Of a stretch of DNA of 34,962 nt, positions 8,186-34,655 are shown piece by piece (the stretch's first letter is position 1; every line of letters starts with the position of its first letter). The notes beneath the pieces were generated by a model. It made no database searches, had not been told where the DNA came from, and was given only the letters and a program-made list of their open reading frames with translations. The DNA is from Minisyncoccia bacterium (GTDB lineage Bacteria > Patescibacteriota > Minisyncoccia > Phycocordibacterales > UBA2100): NCBI GenBank assembly GCA_049306055.1, contig JBAQPT010000124.1:1-34962 (forward strand), written 5' to 3'. A program made the position numbers and the translations under genes.

Positions 8186-8287
8186 GGCAATTTAAATAGT
8201 TGGTGGAAATTGTTGAGAATTGACTTGCGTCTTTTCCGTGACATACCTTATATCAATACCGGCCTCATGTGTCAAGCGGTAGTCAAG

Positions 8288-8375
8288 GATAATTTTCTAC
8301 TGAAAATTTCCTTGACCCTGCCTCGCGCTGTCGCGCTCCGGCCTTGCGTTGGGGCCCCACCCCCAACTCACACCT
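8288..8375 (+). repeat. Structured intergenic module, copy X (family of 5 in this window)
   Basis: Ordered blocks: AATTTTCTACTG / AAAATTTCC / CCCTGCCTCGC (8316-8326) / hairpin GCGC-tgtc-GCGC / GCTCCGGCCTTGC (8335-8347) / hairpin TTGGGG-N6-CCCCAA (8349-8366). 8339-8364 matches 34245-34270 at 24 of 26 positions. Confidence 0.8.
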
Positions 8376-16245: not shown

Positions 16246-17427
16246 TTAAAGCAACTTCCGGTGCAGGTGGTGCGAGAGGAGGACCGAAGCTGCTGCTGCA
16301 AATGCGGCGGCCACCATTATGATCGCAAAGGCGATAACCGTTGGGTACATAAAGACGATCTTTGCAAAAATGAGACACGTAATGATGCGGCCAAGGGCGA
16401 GTCCCATTTCTTTTAGCGCCGTGTATTCATCCACATAATGCCCGTGATCTGCCCATTGATCGTGCGTGTGTGCGTCAACACCACGACTGCGCGGCGATGC
16501 GCCCGAATGGTAATACACGTCAGCGACGATAATTTGCACGGGCGTTCCTGCGGCGAGACGGAAAATCCAACTTGAGAAAGCGATTGTGGCGAGCACGTAG
16601 GGCGAACGTTCCGCACGGACAAATTGCAGCGCACGTCCGATAATTTTTCGTCCGAGAAACGCGACAAGAAACGTGATTGCCATCACGATGCCAAAAGCAG
16701 TGAATGATTGATTCAAAATGAGGAATGCCGCGAGTGGCCAGATGAGAAGAAGCGCGGTGCCCTGTATGCCATCGAGAACTGAAAGCCACAAGACACCGCG
16801 ATGCGCGCGAGAAAAAAGCGCATTGAGCGTCCCGACATAACTCCATTCAAACCGTTCATAGGTCTCTGGCATTTCCACAAGCGCGATTGCTGCGGCAAGC
16901 GCGATTGCTGCGGCGGAAGCGAAGAGAAGCCCCGCTCCCCCGCTTACTTCCGCGATAACGTAGCCGCCGATAAGCGGCACAAGTGCGAGCGACGCTTCGC
17001 CATAACCGAATCGACTCCTGTCGGGCGCAGCGGCAGCATAGGGCACGAAATACAGCGCCCGCTGGATGCCATTCAGAATGACAAATCCGGCGATAAGCGA
17101 AAATGCCACGTCAGGAAATTTTGCAAAACGCGAAATGAAAAGCTCGGCGAGAAAACCAAACGAGACGAGCGACGCGAGCGAGCCGAGAATAAGTGCGCGC
17201 CGCACCCCATGCCGCAGCGCCGCGCCCGCAAGCGGCGTCAGCAGGAACGAGATACCGTGCGAGATTGCAAAAAGAAGCGCGGTGCCGCCAAGCGCGAGCG
17301 CGATATCACCCGAGAAAACATGCAACACGCGAAACACGATTACCCACGCGAAAAAGTTTCCTGCGGCAAGGGCGAGACGGAAAAGATAGCGATGAATCGC
17401 GAGCACTCGCGGGCCAATCTCGCCCAT
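16246..17427 (-). CDS. MFS-like multi-pass transporter
   Basis: Roughly 10-12 TM helices. LAGAALRHGVRRALILG resembles MFS motif A. Confidence 0.55.
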   Translation of the reverse strand: MGEIGPRVLAIHRYLFRLALAAGNFFAWVIVFRVLHVFSGDIALALGGTALLFAISHGISFLLTPLAGAALRHGVRRALILGSLASLVSFGFLAELFISRFAKFPDVAFSLIAGFVILNGIQRALYFVPYAAAAPDRSRFGYGEASLALVPLIGGYVIAEVSGGAGLLFASAAAIALAAAIALVEMPETYERFEWSYVGTLNALFSRAHRGVLWLSVLDGIQGTALLLIWPLAAFLILNQSFTAFGIVMAITFLVAFLGRKIIGRALQFVRAERSPYVLATIAFSSWIFRLAAGTPVQIIVADVYYHSGASPRSRGVDAHTHDQWADHGHYVDEYTALKEMGLALGRIITCLIFAKIVFMYPTVIAFAIIMVAAAFAAAASVLLSHHLHRKLL

Positions 17428-19235: not shown

Positions 19236-19311
19236 GGGCCGTTAGCTCATCTGGTAGAGCACCTCATTTGCAATGAGGGGGTGGCAGGTTCGAGTCCTGT
19301 ACGGTCCACCA
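19236..19311 (+). tRNA. tRNA-Ala (anticodon UGC), CCA encoded
   Basis: The cloverleaf folds by hand: acceptor GGGCCGT/ACGGTCC with G3-U70, D stem GCTC/GAGC, anticodon stem CCTCA/TGAGG with loop TTTGCAA, and T arm GCAGG-TTCGAGT-CCTGT. The 3' end is ACCA. Confidence 0.93.
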
Positions 19312-19500
19312 AAGACACAAAAGCCTCCCCTGCGGGAGGTTTTGTGCTTTGGTGGAAGCCGGAGCGATGTCACAGAAGCTTCTGCGACCGCGAGGCCGGG
19401 TCGGGAAATTTTTTGAGCGACGGCGAGAAAAATATTCCTGACCTCACAAGCAGTTGTTGAATTCGCGATGAAATTATTTGTGACCCACAAAAAATTGACT
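19312..19500 (-). repeat. Structured intergenic module, copy A, minus orientation, tail-to-tail with tRNA-Ala
   Basis: Read on the minus strand: AATTTTTTGTGGG / CGCTCAAAAAATTTCC / CCCGGCCTCGCG / hairpin GTCGCAGAAGCTTCTGTGAC (19369-19388) / ACATCGCTCCGGCTTCC (19354-19370) / terminator hairpin. Confidence 0.8.
19316..19350. terminator. bidirectional intrinsic terminator (tRNA-Ala on plus, module A on minus)
   Basis: GCCTCCC-ctgc-GGGAGGT, with TTTTGTGCTTT on plus and CTTTTGTGTCTTT on minus. Confidence 0.7.
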
Positions 19501-30389: not shown

Positions 30390-31673
30390 TTATTCGAGAG
30401 AAAGAACGCGGACGTTGCGCTTGCCGCGTTTCAAAAGTGCGAGGCCGTTTTTAAAATCGTCTTCTGAAAGCACTGCTTCGGCGGAAATCGTCTCCCCATT
30501 CAAGGTGACGGCATTGTTTGCGAGAAATTCGCGTGCTTCGCGTTTTGAACTGGCGAGGCCGGAAGAAACGAGGATGTCGGCGATTGGCGTTGCGAGCTTA
30601 ACGTCGCTTCCGGGCGCTTCCTTTTTGAGCATTGCAATCGAATCGCTTTCGAGATCGGTTAGCGTTGAATCGCCGAAGAGAAGTTCGGAGATGCGCGCGG
30701 CAGATTCCGCCGCTTGTTCGCCATGGACGAGCGTCGTTACGGCATGTGCAAGGGCGCGCTGCGCTTCTCGCGCGCTGGGATTTTTCAAATGCGAAACCAT
30801 GATCGTCTCAATCTCCTCTTTTGGCATGAGCGTCATCTTTAAAAGATATTCTTCGACTGAATCATCTTCAGCATTCAGCCAAAACTGGTAGAACTGATAG
30901 ACACTTGTTTTTGTTTCGTCGAGCCATACCGTCGCACCGCCCTCGCTCTTTCCAAATTTCTTTCCGGTAGCCTTGTCGACGAGAAGCGGCCAGGAAAGCG
31001 CGAAAGCCTCTCCGCCGGTTGTGCGGCGAATAAGTTAGACGCCGGAGAGAATATTCCCCCACTGGTCCGAACCGCCAACTTGGAGGTCGCATCCGTATTC
31101 TTTGTGAAGCTGCAAAAAGTCGTATGCCTGCAACAACATGTAGGAAAATTCGGTGTACGAAATGCTTTGATCGGGTGTTTCGAGCCGTGGGCGGACACTA
31201 TCGCGCTTCACCATTTCGTTTACCGTAAAGTGCTTACCGATATCGCGCAGAAATTCCATGAGATTGAGTTCGCGAAGCCAATCGGCGTTGTTCACCATTT
31301 CAAAATCAACGCCCGCCTCGCCTTGACCGGCGAGTCGAGGCGGGCCACCGAGAAGTTGCGTGAATTGTTTTTTGAGCGCTTTTGAATTTTCATCAACGGT
31401 TTCGTCGGAAAGAAGGTTGCGTTCTGCGCTTTTGCCGCCCGGGTCGCCGATCATTCCTGTTCCGCCGCCGACAATGATGATGAGTTTGTGGCCATCATCA
31501 ACAAATCGGCGCAGCACGAGAATGCCTTGCAGTTGCCCGACGTGCATAGAGTTTGCGGTCGGATCGACGCCAAGATAGAGCGTTCGCTTTTCGCCGTCAG
31601 TTATTTCTTCAAGTTTTTCCGACGAGTGCTGATACACGTAGCCGCGTTCGCGCAGAATTTCGGACAGCTTCAT
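30390..31673 (-). pseudogene. tyrS: tyrosine--tRNA ligase interrupted by one in-frame TAA (31035-31037); otherwise full length (427 codons)
   Basis: N-terminal part: HIGH-like [19 protein letters not shown] and [17 protein letters not shown]. Then TAA. The same frame continues LIRRTTGGEAFALSWPLLVDKATGKKFGKSEGG (KMSKS), then VYQFYQFW and the S4 domain to 30390. Confidence 0.88.
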
Positions 31674-31680
31674 AGGCGGA

Positions 31681-31689
31681 AATATAGCA
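31681..31689 (-). promoter_or_regulatory. extended -10 box abutting the tyrS start
   Basis: On the minus strand: TGcTATATT-N7-ATG, directly after the terminator T-tract. Confidence 0.5.
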
Positions 31690-31690
31690 C

Positions 31691-31722
31691 AAAAAAAGGC
31701 CGTGCCACGAGAGGGCACGGCC
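31691..31722 (-). terminator. orphan intrinsic terminator immediately upstream of tyrS
   Basis: On the minus strand: GGCCGTGCC-ctctcgt-GGCACGGCC (9 bp), followed by T7. Confidence 0.7.
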
Positions 31723-31815
31723 AAGGTAAGACAGCCGGGGCTACAACGCGAACCTGGAGAGACACGGAGCCACACAGATGCCGCAGAGAACTATACCGGC
31801 TATTCTGAAAATTAC

Positions 31816-34119: not shown

Positions 34120-34275
34120 GAGAAAATTTTGTAGTGTAGCACCGCAGGTCACATATATTTCCTTGCCGACGCTCGGAAATTTCGCGATCACGCATAAATC
34201 GCCGGTGCGATTTTGCGCGATCCCGCCTCGCAGCCGAGCTGCTTCGGCCTTGCGACGGGGCCCCACCCCCCGTCT
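34120..34275 (+). repeat. Structured intergenic module, copy Y1
   Basis: AAATTTTGTAGTG / GACGCTCGGAAATTTCGCG / inserted hairpin 34191-34217 / TCCCGCCTCGC (34221-34231) / GCCGAG-ctgc-TTCGGC / GCTTCGGCCTTGC (34241-34253) / GACGGGG-N7-CCCCGTC (34254-34274). Confidence 0.8.
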
Positions 34276-34358
34276 CACCCGTCTCGCGGTTTCGCCGGTT
34301 GACGAAACATCGCTCCGACTCCAATATGTCAGAAAAGGCAAAGAAGTTTGCCTTTTCT
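34276..34358 (+). repeat. Structured intergenic module, copy Y2 (short form), ending 10 nt before tRNA-Glu
   Basis: CCCGTCTCGCG (34278-34288) / GTTTCG-N8-CGAAAC (34289-34308) / ACATCGCTCCGACTCC (34307-34322) / AGAAAAGGCAAA-gaag-TTTGCCTTTTCT (34331-34358, a perfect 12-bp stem). Confidence 0.75.
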
Positions 34359-34368
34359 GTAGCATATT

Positions 34369-34440
34369 GGCCCTATCGTCTATCGGCTAGGACACATCCT
34401 TCTCAAGGATGGAAGGCGGGTTCGATTCCCGCTAGGGTCA
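34369..34440 (+). tRNA. tRNA-Glu (anticodon CUC), CCA not encoded
   Basis: Acceptor GGCCCTA/TAGGGTC, D stem GTCT/GGAC, anticodon stem CATCC/GGATG with loop TTCTCAA, and T arm GCGGG-TTCGATT-CCCGC. Discriminator is A. Confidence 0.9.
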
Positions 34441-34580
34441 AAAACGACACGAAGACATTCCCTGCGGAATGTCTTCGTGGGTTTTTGAAGACGGAGGCAT
34501 GTTTTGTCAGCAGACAAAACGGCCGAGTCCGGGGCTGGAAAATTTTTGAGCGTCGTCTGCCGACCCCGGACAAAAAATTA
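34441..34580 (-). repeat. Structured intergenic module, copy B, minus orientation, tail-to-tail with tRNA-Glu
   Basis: Read on the minus strand: TAATTTTTTGTCCGGGG / GACGCTCAAAAATTTTCC / AGCCCCGGACTCGGCC / GTTTTGTC-tgct-GACAAAAC (34501-34520) / ACATGCCTCCGTCTTC / terminator hairpin. Confidence 0.8.
34448..34486. terminator. bidirectional intrinsic terminator (tRNA-Glu on plus, module B on minus)
   Basis: CACGAAGACATTCC-ctgc-GGAATGTCTTCGTG (14 bp), with GGTTTTT on plus and TCGTTTTT on minus. Confidence 0.75.
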
Positions 34581-34655
34581 TTGTGGCTCATGGATTTTAT
34601 AGCTTTATTTTGAGCCGCAAAATTTTCATTCAAACGGGACAGTTGGAACCGACGC

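Follow-up and report, generated by a model that had tools for sequence, protein, structure and literature searches.

An undescribed family of ~90-base, two-hairpin elements behind tRNA genes of Patescibacteria

A structured repeat recurs five times in a 34,962-nt contig of a Minisyncoccia bacterium (here called the window), with copies on both sides of a tRNA-Glu gene, which raises the questions of what kind of element this is, on which strand it is read, and why it lies beside tRNA genes. The five copies are members of an undescribed family of ~90-base, two-hairpin elements found behind Patescibacteria tRNA genes. A covariance model (R1) trained on 36 copies from other genomes plus window copy C (37 sequences) matched exactly the five copies listed in an initial annotation of the window (cmsearch, E values of 1e-20 to 5e-6). 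No other sequence in the 35 kb scored below an E value of 0.1 when the search was run unfiltered, so the family is confined to intergenic DNA, as the annotation had stated. A de novo repeat search in the window recovered the pairs B and C (32 nt, 84%) and A and Y1 (30 nt, 90%). A degenerate 20-base pattern selected 44 loci, 43 of them in Patescibacteria metagenome-assembled genomes, and R1 identified 75 copies in the window and these loci. The family ranges across Patescibacteria (candidate phyla radiation), mostly Paceibacteria/Parcubacteria, in dozens of genomes. The covariance search originally proposed as a check returned further copies, and the covariation held.

No known family was recognized. 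At the Rfam 15 gathering threshold, tRNAs alone passed in the window and at the element in 20 loci, and at E values up to 10, the element was overlapped only by chance-level matches, namely, RNAI on the terminator hairpin (19 bits versus 47) and ivy-DE (14 bits versus 41). ARAGORN and the Rfam tRNA/tmRNA models called canonical tRNAs alone and did not recognize the element. A full-text search of the literature on noncoding RNA, tRNA-like RNA, MITEs, and T-loop integration in Patescibacteria/Parcubacteria returned no description of it.

A unit is ~140 to 190 nt long and, taken in the orientation of the upstream gene, runs from the tRNA 3' end (X) through a hairpin (H0), a segment X', and an 88-nt core, often followed by X again (X_R). 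H0 often resembles an intrinsic terminator. X' is 3 to 18 nt long and complementary to the final bases of the upstream gene; at tRNAs, the stretch it complements starts at the T-loop or at the discriminator and extends to the 3' end. X_R is a direct repeat of the terminal 3 to 22 bases of the target. The core begins AAGNCGG and holds two hairpins. H1 has a 3-bp base helix, a GGA/GA internal loop (in short, GA/GA), a 3-bp helix, and a variable stem-loop, and H2 is an A/T-rich 16-bp stem that contains a single bulged A and ends in the apex GAGCGACGGCGA, with a cap reading GA-GC-GACG-GC-GA. The motif GACGG is present twice per core. The conserved loops bear a mere resemblance to K-turn, T-loop, or ANYA motifs.

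The structure covaries strongly. In the 37 sequences, 92.5% of cells were paired versus 75.9% in shuffled controls, a level that none of 500 shuffles reached; cells with double-sided changes numbered 203 versus 65 in shuffles, and controls with slid partners were only 30 to 54% paired. Compensatory stems had been proposed from the window alone together with conserved unpaired blocks (numbered 0 to 3), and both features are borne out in a genuine family. Two pairings had been overlooked, that of blocks 0 and 1, which forms H2, and that of blocks 2 and 3, which forms the base of H1. Blocks 1 to 3 do recur, with the strand reversed: block 1 is the reverse complement of the 5' arm and apex of H2, block 2 that of the 3' strand of H1, and block 3 that of the 5' strand of H1. 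Block 0 is the H2 3' arm in copies A and B; the A/T-rich DNA that was given this name in C and Y1 is unrelated and lies beyond the element. The hairpin named hp2 exists but is the separate hairpin H0, whose stem beside tRNAs runs into the tRNA 3' end.

The functional strand is that of the neighboring tRNA. Read on this strand, the stems contain 88 G.U against 13 A.C pairs overall, and when G.U and A.C positions of the two strands are compared in the upper H2 stem, the opposite strand shows 15 A.C versus 2. Tandem G.A/A.G pairs recur on the tRNA strand, where the opposite strand would have C.U/U.C, and the sense strand folds 3 to 6 kcal/mol better than the antisense strand. The initial annotation had instead read a small RNA or structured site on the strand opposite the tRNA; it would end at the bidirectional terminator that both share, and the inverted copies would pair into a leader-trailer processing stem around tRNA-Glu. 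An element so read would end at a terminator-like hairpin, and the stems can form on either strand, but this reading would have to accept the mismatched pairs and the less stable fold, and an inverted upstream copy was found at no other locus; we regard it as extremely improbable.

The window features referred to below are as follows.

8276 to 8370, minus strand: copy A, a 95-nt insertion (cmsearch, 42.9 bits; match at 8281 to 8344)
19236 to 19311, plus strand: tRNA-Ala(TGC) (ARAGORN; Rfam tRNA, 63.6 bits)
19306 to 19355, plus strand: long hairpin (LH) of unit C, made of X-H0-X', CCACCAAAGACACAAAAGCCTCCC-CTGC-GGGAGGTTTTGTGCTTTGGTGG (from the sequence; terminator-like match)
19356 to 19443, plus strand: copy C, complete 88-nt core (cmsearch, 101.2 bits, E value of 1e-20)
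34143 to 34275, minus strand: copy Y1 (cmsearch, 36 bits at 34186 to 34250 and 19 bits at 34157 to 34180)
34252 to 34321, minus strand: copy Y2, a partial unit (cmsearch, 34.8 bits, E value of 5e-6)
34321 to 34370, minus strand: hairpin H0 of unit Y2, CCAATATG...CATATTGG (from the sequence; previously called hp2 of Y2)
34368 to 34441, plus strand: tRNA-Glu(CTC) (ARAGORN; Rfam)
34438 to 34487, plus strand: LH of unit B, TCAAAAACGACACGAAGACATTCC-CTGC-GGAATGTCTTCGTGGGTTTTTGA (from the sequence; terminator-like on both strands, 14 pairs)
34488 to 34589, plus strand: copy B, core of the tRNA-Glu subfamily, sub2 (cmsearch, 71.1 bits)

In unit C, the last bases of tRNA-Ala (CCACCA) are the 5' foot of the terminator-like hairpin preceding the core, and the GGTGG that closes the 3' arm of this hairpin is the complement of the tRNA 3' end; positions 19302 to 19450 fold at -77.2 kcal/mol (z = -8.5). 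Copy C carries H1 at 19358 to 19396 and H2 at 19399 to 19443 with the apex GAGCGACGGCGA, and its minimum free energy fold is the consensus structure (-38.4 kcal/mol, z = -4.1; antisense, -32.1). It ends at 19443, not at 19500 as first drawn. The long hairpin of unit B resembles a bidirectional terminator, and its stem begins within the last bases of tRNA-Glu. H1 of copy B is intact; a ~14-nt insertion (about 34556 to 34571) splits its H2 apex, and the predicted fold lacks a canonical H2.

On the other side of tRNA-Glu, H0 of Y2 abuts the 5' end of the tRNA on the opposite strand with a 2-nt overlap. Y1 and Y2 had been described as tandem copies. They are adjacent, but together they form a composite in which Y2 supplies a hairpin and a complete H1 (GAGTCGGAGCGATG-hp1-CGCGAGAC), with the G-rich hairpin that opens Y1 standing in place of H2 (deleted in the alignment). 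Y1 consists of that G-rich hairpin (H0', 34254 to 34274), H1' (34222 to 34251), an extra hairpin (34192 to 34221), and H2 (34147 to 34191, apex at 34157 to 34180). A composite of the same type occurs in units 2 and 3 of locus L020. Copy A runs in the order TGA, H0' (8348 to 8367), GC, core (8281 to 8345), and ACCGC, its H2 apex shrunk to the tetraloop AGUA, and folds at -46.2 kcal/mol (z = -6.4). It lies directly upstream of the -35 hexamer TTGACA of a sigma70_r4 gene.

The association with tRNA genes suspected from the window holds across genomes. In the 44 pattern-selected loci and the window, 35 of 57 tRNAs have a same-strand unit 30 to 150 nt downstream (33 of the 35 in other genomes), and the element is only downstream and co-oriented; an inverted downstream unit was found at none of the 57. 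These 35 units speak against inverted copies serving as a processing stem. The upstream inverted Y2/Y1 arrangement is peculiar to the window, and block 3 of Y2 and that of B are only ~10/14 complementary (by eye). Cores lie directly after the terminator-like hairpins of tRNAs and of rplL, on the same strand.

The flanks are derived from the target. Complementarity of X' to the tRNA 3' end over at least 10 nt occurs in 44% of cognate versus 4% of noncognate pairs, and X_R repeats of at least 10 nt occur in 32% versus 1.2%. Among 34 tRNA-adjacent units, 11 have X_R direct repeats of 12 to 22 nt and 13 have repeats of at least 8 nt; flanking repeats overall span 3 to 22 nt, with 83 nt in L036. 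Because the X'/X_R inverted repeats copy the neighboring tRNA, they are not element specific. Left flanks vary (...GGTCAC, ...CCACCA, ...TTCGA, and ...AGGTG), with no fixed tetra- or pentanucleotide. A closing helix like an acceptor/T-stem is confined to the T-loop class. With regard to reverse transcription of mature tRNA, X_R contains a CCA that the tRNA gene lacks in two loci (L003 and L019), and three others (L023, L029, and L040) do not show this. Subfamilies follow tRNA identity across genomes, for example, sub1 with tRNA-Ser and sub2 with tRNA-Glu. At tRNA-Glu loci of eight genomes, the core is 84.5% and the tRNA 81.6% conserved, versus 66% for H0 and 56% for the downstream flank.

Several familiar readings fail. 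The element is noncoding, as originally judged: small open reading frames on the tRNA strand (MFCQQTKRPSPGLENF and MSQKLLRPRGRVGKFF) differ in frame when set against the conserved block, and hp1 varies in length by indels that are not multiples of three. An internal ECF or sigma-70 promoter was rejected on hexamer spacing (by eye) and empty consensus scans. An intron in the tRNA T-loop was rejected: neither a D arm nor an anticodon arm precedes the split T-arm-like flanks. A classical MITE derived from a DDE transposase does not fit copy A, which lacks terminal inverted repeats and a fixed-length target duplication, or the repeats of 3 to 22 nt elsewhere. A class C group II intron does not fit an 88-nt core that starts AAGNCGG and has no Rfam intron match.

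Signs of mobility come from comparing sites. Copy A is missing at the orthologous site in L020 (GTGTGGATAGGTG directly followed by TTGACA) and from 80 metagenome orthologous loci (81 with L020), 392 kb in which R1 had no match. It is a lineage-specific insertion and the only clean empty-versus-filled site. Its ends (TGAGTTGG... and ...GACTACCGC) lack terminal inverted repeats, and the target is not duplicated over 2 bp or more. L026 carries one more gene-proximal unit than L015 at the 3' end of rplL. Tandem arrays occur in eight loci, and in five arrays (L045, L026, L020, L012, and L022) scores drop with distance from the gene. In L029 and L030, a newer unit lies between the tRNA and an older unit, and the displaced tRNA 3' end keeps its old terminator; type-2 units in L017 and L036 have the same order, the old terminator still following the displaced 3' end. 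There has been no burst in recent times, since the copies that share a genome are not near-identical. The neighborhoods of the elements have no transposase, integrase, or reverse transcriptase in common (the widest neighboring protein family is at 4 of 44 loci), and an H2 pattern search of 2.9 million viral contigs found no copies.

The covarying structure, strand asymmetry, tRNA association, X/X'/X_R pattern, tandem arrays, and one presence/absence insertion described above are observations; the reading of them that we tentatively favor is a small noncoding, nonautonomous mobile element that targets tRNA 3' ends or terminators via a single-stranded intermediate. Units would insert, always co-oriented, directly behind a tRNA 3' end or terminator and occasionally behind other genes, such as rplL, and repeated insertion at one gene end would produce a tandem array. 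Movement may proceed through a single-stranded, sense-strand intermediate, either single-stranded DNA in an IS200/IS605-type "peel and paste" or RNA produced by read-through from a strong upstream promoter. X' could act as a guide that pairs with X, and an enzyme presumably supplied in trans would recognize the core. Several observations sit poorly with mobility. A core as conserved as the tRNA fits purifying selection in situ, and hence a host function, at least as well; subfamilies track tRNA identity, and copies within a genome are not near-identical. To our knowledge, no transposase makes flanking repeats of such variable length. No candidate enzyme recurs nearby, viral contigs hold no copies, and the mobile reading has a single clean empty-versus-filled site.

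The main rival is a host-beneficial structured small RNA or cis-acting RNA domain, cotranscribed with the tRNA by read-through of H0, which we consider possible but on balance unlikely. In the T-loop class, the X'/X_R helix would mimic the acceptor/T-stem minihelix of the neighboring tRNA, including the discriminator and sometimes CCA, and RNase P or RNase Z could excise the unit in the way known from tRNA punctuation. Local duplication would have left the extra and decayed copies as a side effect. Consistent with this, the core but not H0 or the flanks is conserved like the tRNA, compensatory changes are many among orthologous copies, G.U and tandem G.A pairs lie on the sense strand, the pairing of subfamily with tRNA is kept across many species, and there is no space for a separate promoter. 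A hairpin interrupts X' exactly at the boundary of acceptor and T-stem in L003, L008, L017, and L023, giving a tRNA-like junction, and in L016, X' is perfectly complementary to the tRNA (18/18) where X_R has diverged. Yet roughly one copy in two (sub2, and sub3 of the "end class") is closed by a helix of just 3 to 4 bp and thus has no minihelix, copy A lacks the conserved H2 apex and lies in a divergent promoter region where no upstream gene shares its orientation, arrays and insertion polymorphisms call for an extra mechanism, and H0 resembles an efficient terminator in many units.

Footprints of site-specific integration, left by a minimal element whose attP is a copy of the tRNA 3' end and which is served in trans by a tyrosine recombinase, would account for the 12- to 22-nt direct repeats from the T-loop to, or beyond, the tRNA 3' end, for arrays that build up at one site, and for older terminators after displaced 3' ends in L029, L030, L017, and L036. 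The integrating form would be an ordinary double-stranded circle or a folded single-stranded circle like that of CTX phage, with the X'/X_R stem mimicking the duplex target and the core as the loop. X' and X_R are inverted copies ~90 nt apart, in the manner of the CTX attP hairpin. Integration of this kind is improbable given that no integrase is nearby, end-class repeats are merely 3 to 5 nt, the copy A and rplL sites are not tRNAs (copy A having no repeat at all), and the repeats fit each host's own tRNA, unexpected for a transferable attP. A double-stranded regulatory module between a terminator and the next promoter, such as a protein-binding site, UP element, or insulator, is less probable by far: A, Y1, and C do precede sigma-70-like promoters belonging to the next gene (by eye), and GACGG is repeated in each core, but compensatory stem changes and strand-asymmetric G.U/G.A pairs are unexpected for duplex sites, the covariation already counting strongly against them. 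The neighbor that B and many other copies face is a convergent gene or a further tRNA, and no promoter is present there; consensus promoter scans are empty inside the element.

The mobile-element reading can be set beside known systems. Like IS200/IS605 elements and PATEs, the family is strand specific, with no terminal inverted repeats or target duplication in copy A, hairpins near both ends (in copy A, 3 nt separate H0' from the left end and 5 nt separate H2 from the right end), insertion directly 3' of a recognized sequence, and a flank read by an internal guide; here, X' would pair with the left flank X and likewise with X_R at the right end. Unlike theirs, the guide-like segment is 3 to 18 nt rather than 4, there is one guide, placed between two hairpins, H0 and H2 at the ends do not resemble each other, and the target is a gene 3' end rather than a fixed tetranucleotide. 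No Y1 (HUH) transposase, sought as an IS200/IS608 TnpA-like open reading frame, was found by tblastn in the 739 kb examined, which is weak evidence given the approximate query sequences. REP/BIME and REPIN-RAYT systems share extragenic structured repeats after genes, tandem clusters, compensatory stem changes, lasting persistence at conserved positions, and mobilization in trans. REPs, however, are ~35-nt hairpins with a 5' GTAG, and REPINs are inverted doublets, whereas here an 88-nt two-hairpin core with conserved loops keeps a single orientation to the upstream gene and has flanks derived from tRNA 3' ends; no RAYT was seen at the loci examined.

Class C group II introns likewise insert in the sense orientation just downstream of intrinsic-terminator stem-loops, need read-through transcription, and pair with the upstream flank, but the core is far too small and has no domain V, GUGYG...AY ends, or reverse transcriptase. 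Integrative elements that use tyrosine integrases at tRNA genes (T-loop sublocation) also leave an intact tRNA, an insert flanked by direct repeats of its 3' end, and arrays from repeated integration, and CTX-type folded single-stranded attP sites have an inverted site copy ~90 nt from the junction; the unit differs in being just ~140 to 190 nt, in having no integrase and many repeats of only 3 to 5 nt, and in using some non-tRNA sites. RNAs from tRNA 3' external transcribed spacers (3'ETS-leuZ) and mascRNA-type RNAs match in lying on the tRNA strand within the 3' trailer, in their possible release by tRNA-processing enzymes, and, for the T-loop class, in minihelix mimicry. They are single lineage-specific loci, in contrast to a multicopy family behind many tRNAs with an intervening terminator-like hairpin and insertion polymorphism.

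A more specific and rather doubtful proposal is that the unit is a guide-bearing insertion module: X' would pair with the tRNA-gene 3' end, as gene, single-stranded DNA, or transcript, and steer the trans-acting enzyme to insert the unit at precisely that site, and X_R would be the end read by the same guide. If true, this would be nucleic acid-guided and effectively programmable targeting, specific to the candidate phyla radiation, with an 8- to 18-nt guide, mechanistically akin to IS200/IS605 guide-target pairing or bridge-RNA logic. In a variant, the released RNA would be a tRNA-minihelix mimic cut by tRNA-processing enzymes.

Patescibacteria, whose genomes are tiny and whose intergenic regions are short, make up a very large, nearly uncultivated share of bacterial diversity, so a multicopy element conserved at the level of tRNA yet missing from Rfam is unexpected. 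In the pattern-selected loci, it occupies the trailer of roughly half of the sampled tRNA genes. If mobile, it would represent targeting of gene 3' ends by target-complementary sequence and would provide a marker for recent genome change; if a host RNA, it would be a new widespread class of noncoding RNA tied to tRNA expression or processing. Either way, the covariance model can be used now to annotate these genomes and would keep the hairpins from being called terminators or small open reading frames.

The window is Patescibacteria-type chromosomal DNA carrying housekeeping genes (dnaB, recR, mnmA, mltG/yceG, rmuC, uvrA/B/C, murB, ddl, and tyrS), and a search of its whole length against Rfam at gathering thresholds returned two tRNAs and nothing more. 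All five copies of the structured repeat reported in the initial annotation (A, B, C, Y1, and Y2) are visible in the sequence, where a repeat search paired B with C (32 nt, 84%) and A with Y1 (30 nt, 90%). The same five were recovered by R1, a covariance model of the conserved core with its hairpins H1 and H2; with filters off, R1 found only these copies in the window and nothing further below E = 0.1.

tRNA genes and element copies in the window
8281 to 8344, minus strand: copy A, R1 score 43 bits; short hp1 (variable stem-loop of H1), H2 apex cut down to a tetraloop
19236 to 19311, plus strand: tRNA-Ala(TGC)
19356 to 19443, plus strand: copy C, 101 bits; complete
34186 to 34250, minus strand: copy Y1, 36 bits; composite, with its true H2 apex at 34157 to 34180
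34252 to 34321, minus strand: copy Y2, 35 bits; H1 only
34368 to 34441, plus strand: tRNA-Glu(CTC)
34488 to 34589, plus strand: copy B, 71 bits; insertion of ~14 nt within the H2 apex

Together, Y2 and Y1 run in the order hairpin, H1, G-rich hairpin, H1', extra hairpin, and H2, and a composite of this type also lies 3' of tRNA-Ala in L020, a locus from another genome. The insertion in copy B (~14 nt, 34556 to 34571, starting TCTGCCGACCCCGG) falls in an apex that is otherwise invariant in the family. Because the inserted bases pair with the H2 base, canonical H2 is not the predicted fold of copy B, which may be a decaying copy. Elsewhere in the window, tyrS (30390 to 31775, minus strand) is a continuous frame but for one in-frame TAA (31035 to 31037), at a position that we take to be conserved by comparison with E. 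coli TyrRS; a pseudogene, a split gene, and an assembly error are all possible explanations. Within a minus-strand ORF (16246 to 17427) that had no Pfam match, 18 nt (CAAGCGCGATTGCTGCGG) are perfectly duplicated in tandem (16878 to 16913).

A degenerate 20-base pattern based on copies B and C (GCTCNNAAAWTTTCCN{3,4}CCCNGNCTCG) matched 44 loci when run against one representative genome per GTDB species. All but one were in Patescibacteria MAGs (43 of 44; labeled Paceibacterota, Parcubacteria, Lloydbacteria, Zambryskibacteria, Minisyncoccia, and "Saccharibacteria"), and the 44th, in a planctomycete, looks like a chance match. The flanks of the matches align as a single clear family, and R1 detected 75 copies across the window and the 44 loci. 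No Rfam family covered the element in 20 of the 44 loci or, at E values up to 10, in the window, and no description of it was found in the literature. (Locus L030 also carries a LOOT RNA, at 186 to 308 on the minus strand [RF03000, 78 bits], which has no relation to the element.)

About 30 of 46 exact-pattern copies have a tRNA 66 to 115 nt away from the conserved block, encoded on the other strand from the one read in the initial annotation, so that the order on the tRNA strand is tRNA, hairpin, element. Read on this strand, the core is 88 nt long and forms two hairpins. From its 3-bp base helix, in which GAC/GUC covaries with GCC/GGC, H1 continues through a GGA/GA internal loop and a second 3-bp helix (GCG/CGC covarying with GGC/GCC) to the variable stem-loop previously described as hp1. 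H2 is a 16-bp stem with one bulged A and an almost invariant cap (GA-GC-GACG-GC-GA). In the alignment of 37 distinct core sequences from which R1 was built, paired cells reached 92.5%, compared to 75.9% when columns were shuffled (none of 500 shuffles equaled the real alignment), and double-sided changes occurred in 203 cells, compared to 65 in shuffles. Sliding the partners by 1 to 3 columns reduced paired cells to 30 to 54%, and all eight hp1 pairs covaried.

Core mismatches were distributed unequally between strands, with G·U on the tRNA strand versus A·C on the other strand at 88 versus 13 overall and 15 versus 2 in the upper H2 stem. Some hp1 stems contain tandem G·A/A·G pairs, which would be C·U/U·C on the strand originally chosen. 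For copies C, B, and A, the sense fold is 3 to 6 kcal/mol better than the antisense fold, and the minimum-energy fold of copy C is the consensus structure. The G·U/A·C asymmetry, the tandem G·A pairs, and the folding energies point to the tRNA strand as the functional strand. Given this strand evidence and the two-hairpin fold, the conserved blocks of the initial annotation are real sequences read in the wrong orientation, being reverse complements on the tRNA strand; nor are they unpaired, as blocks 0 and 1 form H2 and blocks 2 and 3 form the H1 base. Its opposite-strand sRNA runs against the same strand evidence, and its leader-trailer processing stem found no support.

According to R1, 35 of 57 tRNA genes in the window and 44 loci have an element 30 to 150 nt downstream on the same strand and 0 of 57 have an inverted one at that distance, in a sample that is biased, since the loci were picked by the B- and C-based pattern for carrying the element. 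These tRNAs are Glu, Ser, Ala, Arg, Leu, Lys, Val, Gly, Trp, and Tyr, and at two loci the element lies directly past the rplL stop codon and terminator. Across genomes, core subfamilies follow tRNA type: "CCCTACCC" cores lie behind tRNA-Ser, "CCAGCCCC" cores behind tRNA-Glu, and "CCCGACCC" cores behind the remaining tRNAs. These results establish a new, widespread family whose sense strand folds as a single strand and which is associated with tRNA gene 3' ends.

The gene and core are separated by a hairpin, H0, which is often terminator-like and is bidirectional in copy B. On the tRNA strand, the loop of several H0 hairpins (L010, L026, L027, L031, and L042) and of the window Y2 hairpin (34321 to 34370) is C-GAA-G; such loops are known for very stable DNA mini-hairpins, which hints weakly at a role for the hairpins as single-stranded DNA. 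The bases from H0 to the core (X') are the complement of the end of the upstream gene (X), which extends H0 to a long hairpin taking in the tRNA 3' end. In an "end class," to which copies B and C belong, X comprises just the last 3 to 5 bases and the A-tract. In a "T-loop class," X' is 8 to 18 nt long, terminating in every case at the complement of TTCGA, and the core is followed by X_R, a direct repeat of the tRNA from T-loop C56 to the 3' end or past it (exact over up to 22 nt). Complementarity of X' to the tRNA 3' end over at least 10 nt was found in 44% of cognate versus 4% of noncognate comparisons, and direct repeats in X_R of at least 10 nt in 32% versus 1.2%. In the end class, too, the 2 to 3 bases that follow the core tend to agree with the end of the tRNA (e.g., CCGC in L045 and GAC in L022). 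Since X_R matches the tRNA end, X' is able to pair with upstream X or with X_R, the latter closing the core. In L016 and L025, X' is still perfectly complementary to the tRNA though X_R has diverged. At L014 (3890 to 3977) and L024 (2480 to 2560), 3' of tRNA-Ser(CGA) on the minus strand, a terminator hairpin precedes an imperfect, X'-like T-arm/acceptor complement with no recognizable core; these may be remnants after core loss.

Insertion of units is evident from comparisons between loci. Synteny between L020 and the window covers dnaB, recR, and the sigma70_r4 gene next to copy A (~72% nucleotide identity). The L020 intergenic site orthologous to copy A reads GTGTGGATAGGTG followed by TTGACA, and the window has 95 extra bases (8276 to 8370) exactly at the junction. 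On the minus strand this insert consists of TGA, a G-rich hairpin, GC, the core, and ACCGC; it has neither terminal inverted repeats nor a target duplication of at least 2 bp. In 80 further metagenome loci with an orthologous sigma70_r4 gene (80 to 47% amino acid identity), R1 had zero matches over 392 kb, and the insert is missing from the intergenic regions, where the promoter and flanking motif are retained. Copy A is the one fully clean empty-versus-filled site. The divergent promoters between dnaB and sigma70_r4/HARE-HTH are conserved in relatives (window 8222 to 8300 and orthologous regions of L020 and L047 to L058), with TTGACT-N17-TATATC on one strand, TTGACA-N17-TATAAG on the other, and the rest of the spacer unalignable.

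The rplL 3' end carries one unit in L015 and three in L026; because the second L026 unit and the L015 unit have nearly the same H1, the extra L026 unit is the gene-proximal one. Tandem arrays occur in L045, L026, L020, L012, L022, L030, L029, and L006, and in five of these eight the R1 score drops with distance from the gene (102, 36, 19, and 20 bits in L020). In L029 and L030, an older end-class unit is separated from the tRNA by a T-loop-class unit, and the displaced X_R still precedes the older terminator. L017 and L036 have the same stacked layout with a tRNA-proximal "type-2" insert, a second kind of insert whose core (ending ...GTACTGNNNCTGTAAGG) occupies the slot between X' and X_R. Since the two cores share this slot, the flank architecture is a property of the insertion process, not of one core. 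The type-2 inserts (L017, 451 to 607; L036, 4563 to 4683; tRNA strand) are unrelated to the element core and comprise an AT-rich hairpin and then GTACTGNNNCTGTAAGG, flanked by an exact 20- to 21-nt repeat of the tRNA 3' end; in L036, the entire 83-nt X-H0-X' segment is duplicated around the insert. At L014 (4402 to 5311), L011 (387 to 1114), and L018 (1513 to 3129), 0.7 to 1.6 kb with ORFs lies between tRNA-Glu and a hairpin-plus-core unit. These stretches end in tRNA-3'-end-like sequence (TTCCAATTC…GGGTCAC) and may be larger integrated elements at the element's tRNA sites.

Copies that share a genome are old paralogues rather than recent duplicates, and their nearest relatives lie at like tRNA types in other genomes. 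Among tRNA-Glu loci from eight genomes, mean pairwise identity was 84.5% for the core (88.5% without hp1), 81.6% for the tRNA, 66% for H0, and 56% for the 60 nt that follow. Genes for transposase, integrase, or reverse transcriptase did not recur near units, no IS200/IS608 TnpA-like ORF was found in 739 kb searched with approximate query sequences, and IMG/VR viral contigs contained zero copies. Conservation, old paralogy, the retained X' complementarity in L016 and L025, and the failure to find such enzymes or viral copies fit either selection in place or a vertical element maintained in a REPIN-like manner.

Our leading, still tentative, interpretation is that the element is a non-autonomous mobile element moving via a single-stranded intermediate. 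This would be sense-strand single-stranded DNA or RNA from read-through of a strong upstream promoter; judging from the sequences, X' could guide the element to the target end, with X_R as the matching element end. IS200/IS605-type elements and their non-autonomous PATE derivatives are closest in mechanism and class C group II introns in target choice, yet the element does not qualify as a member of either, nor as a classical MITE, a REP, or an integrase-bearing island. The main alternative, which we consider less likely, is a host RNA excised from tRNA read-through transcripts, for which T-loop-class mimicry of a tRNA minihelix would provide the punctuation. A mobile origin and a host RNA are not mutually exclusive.
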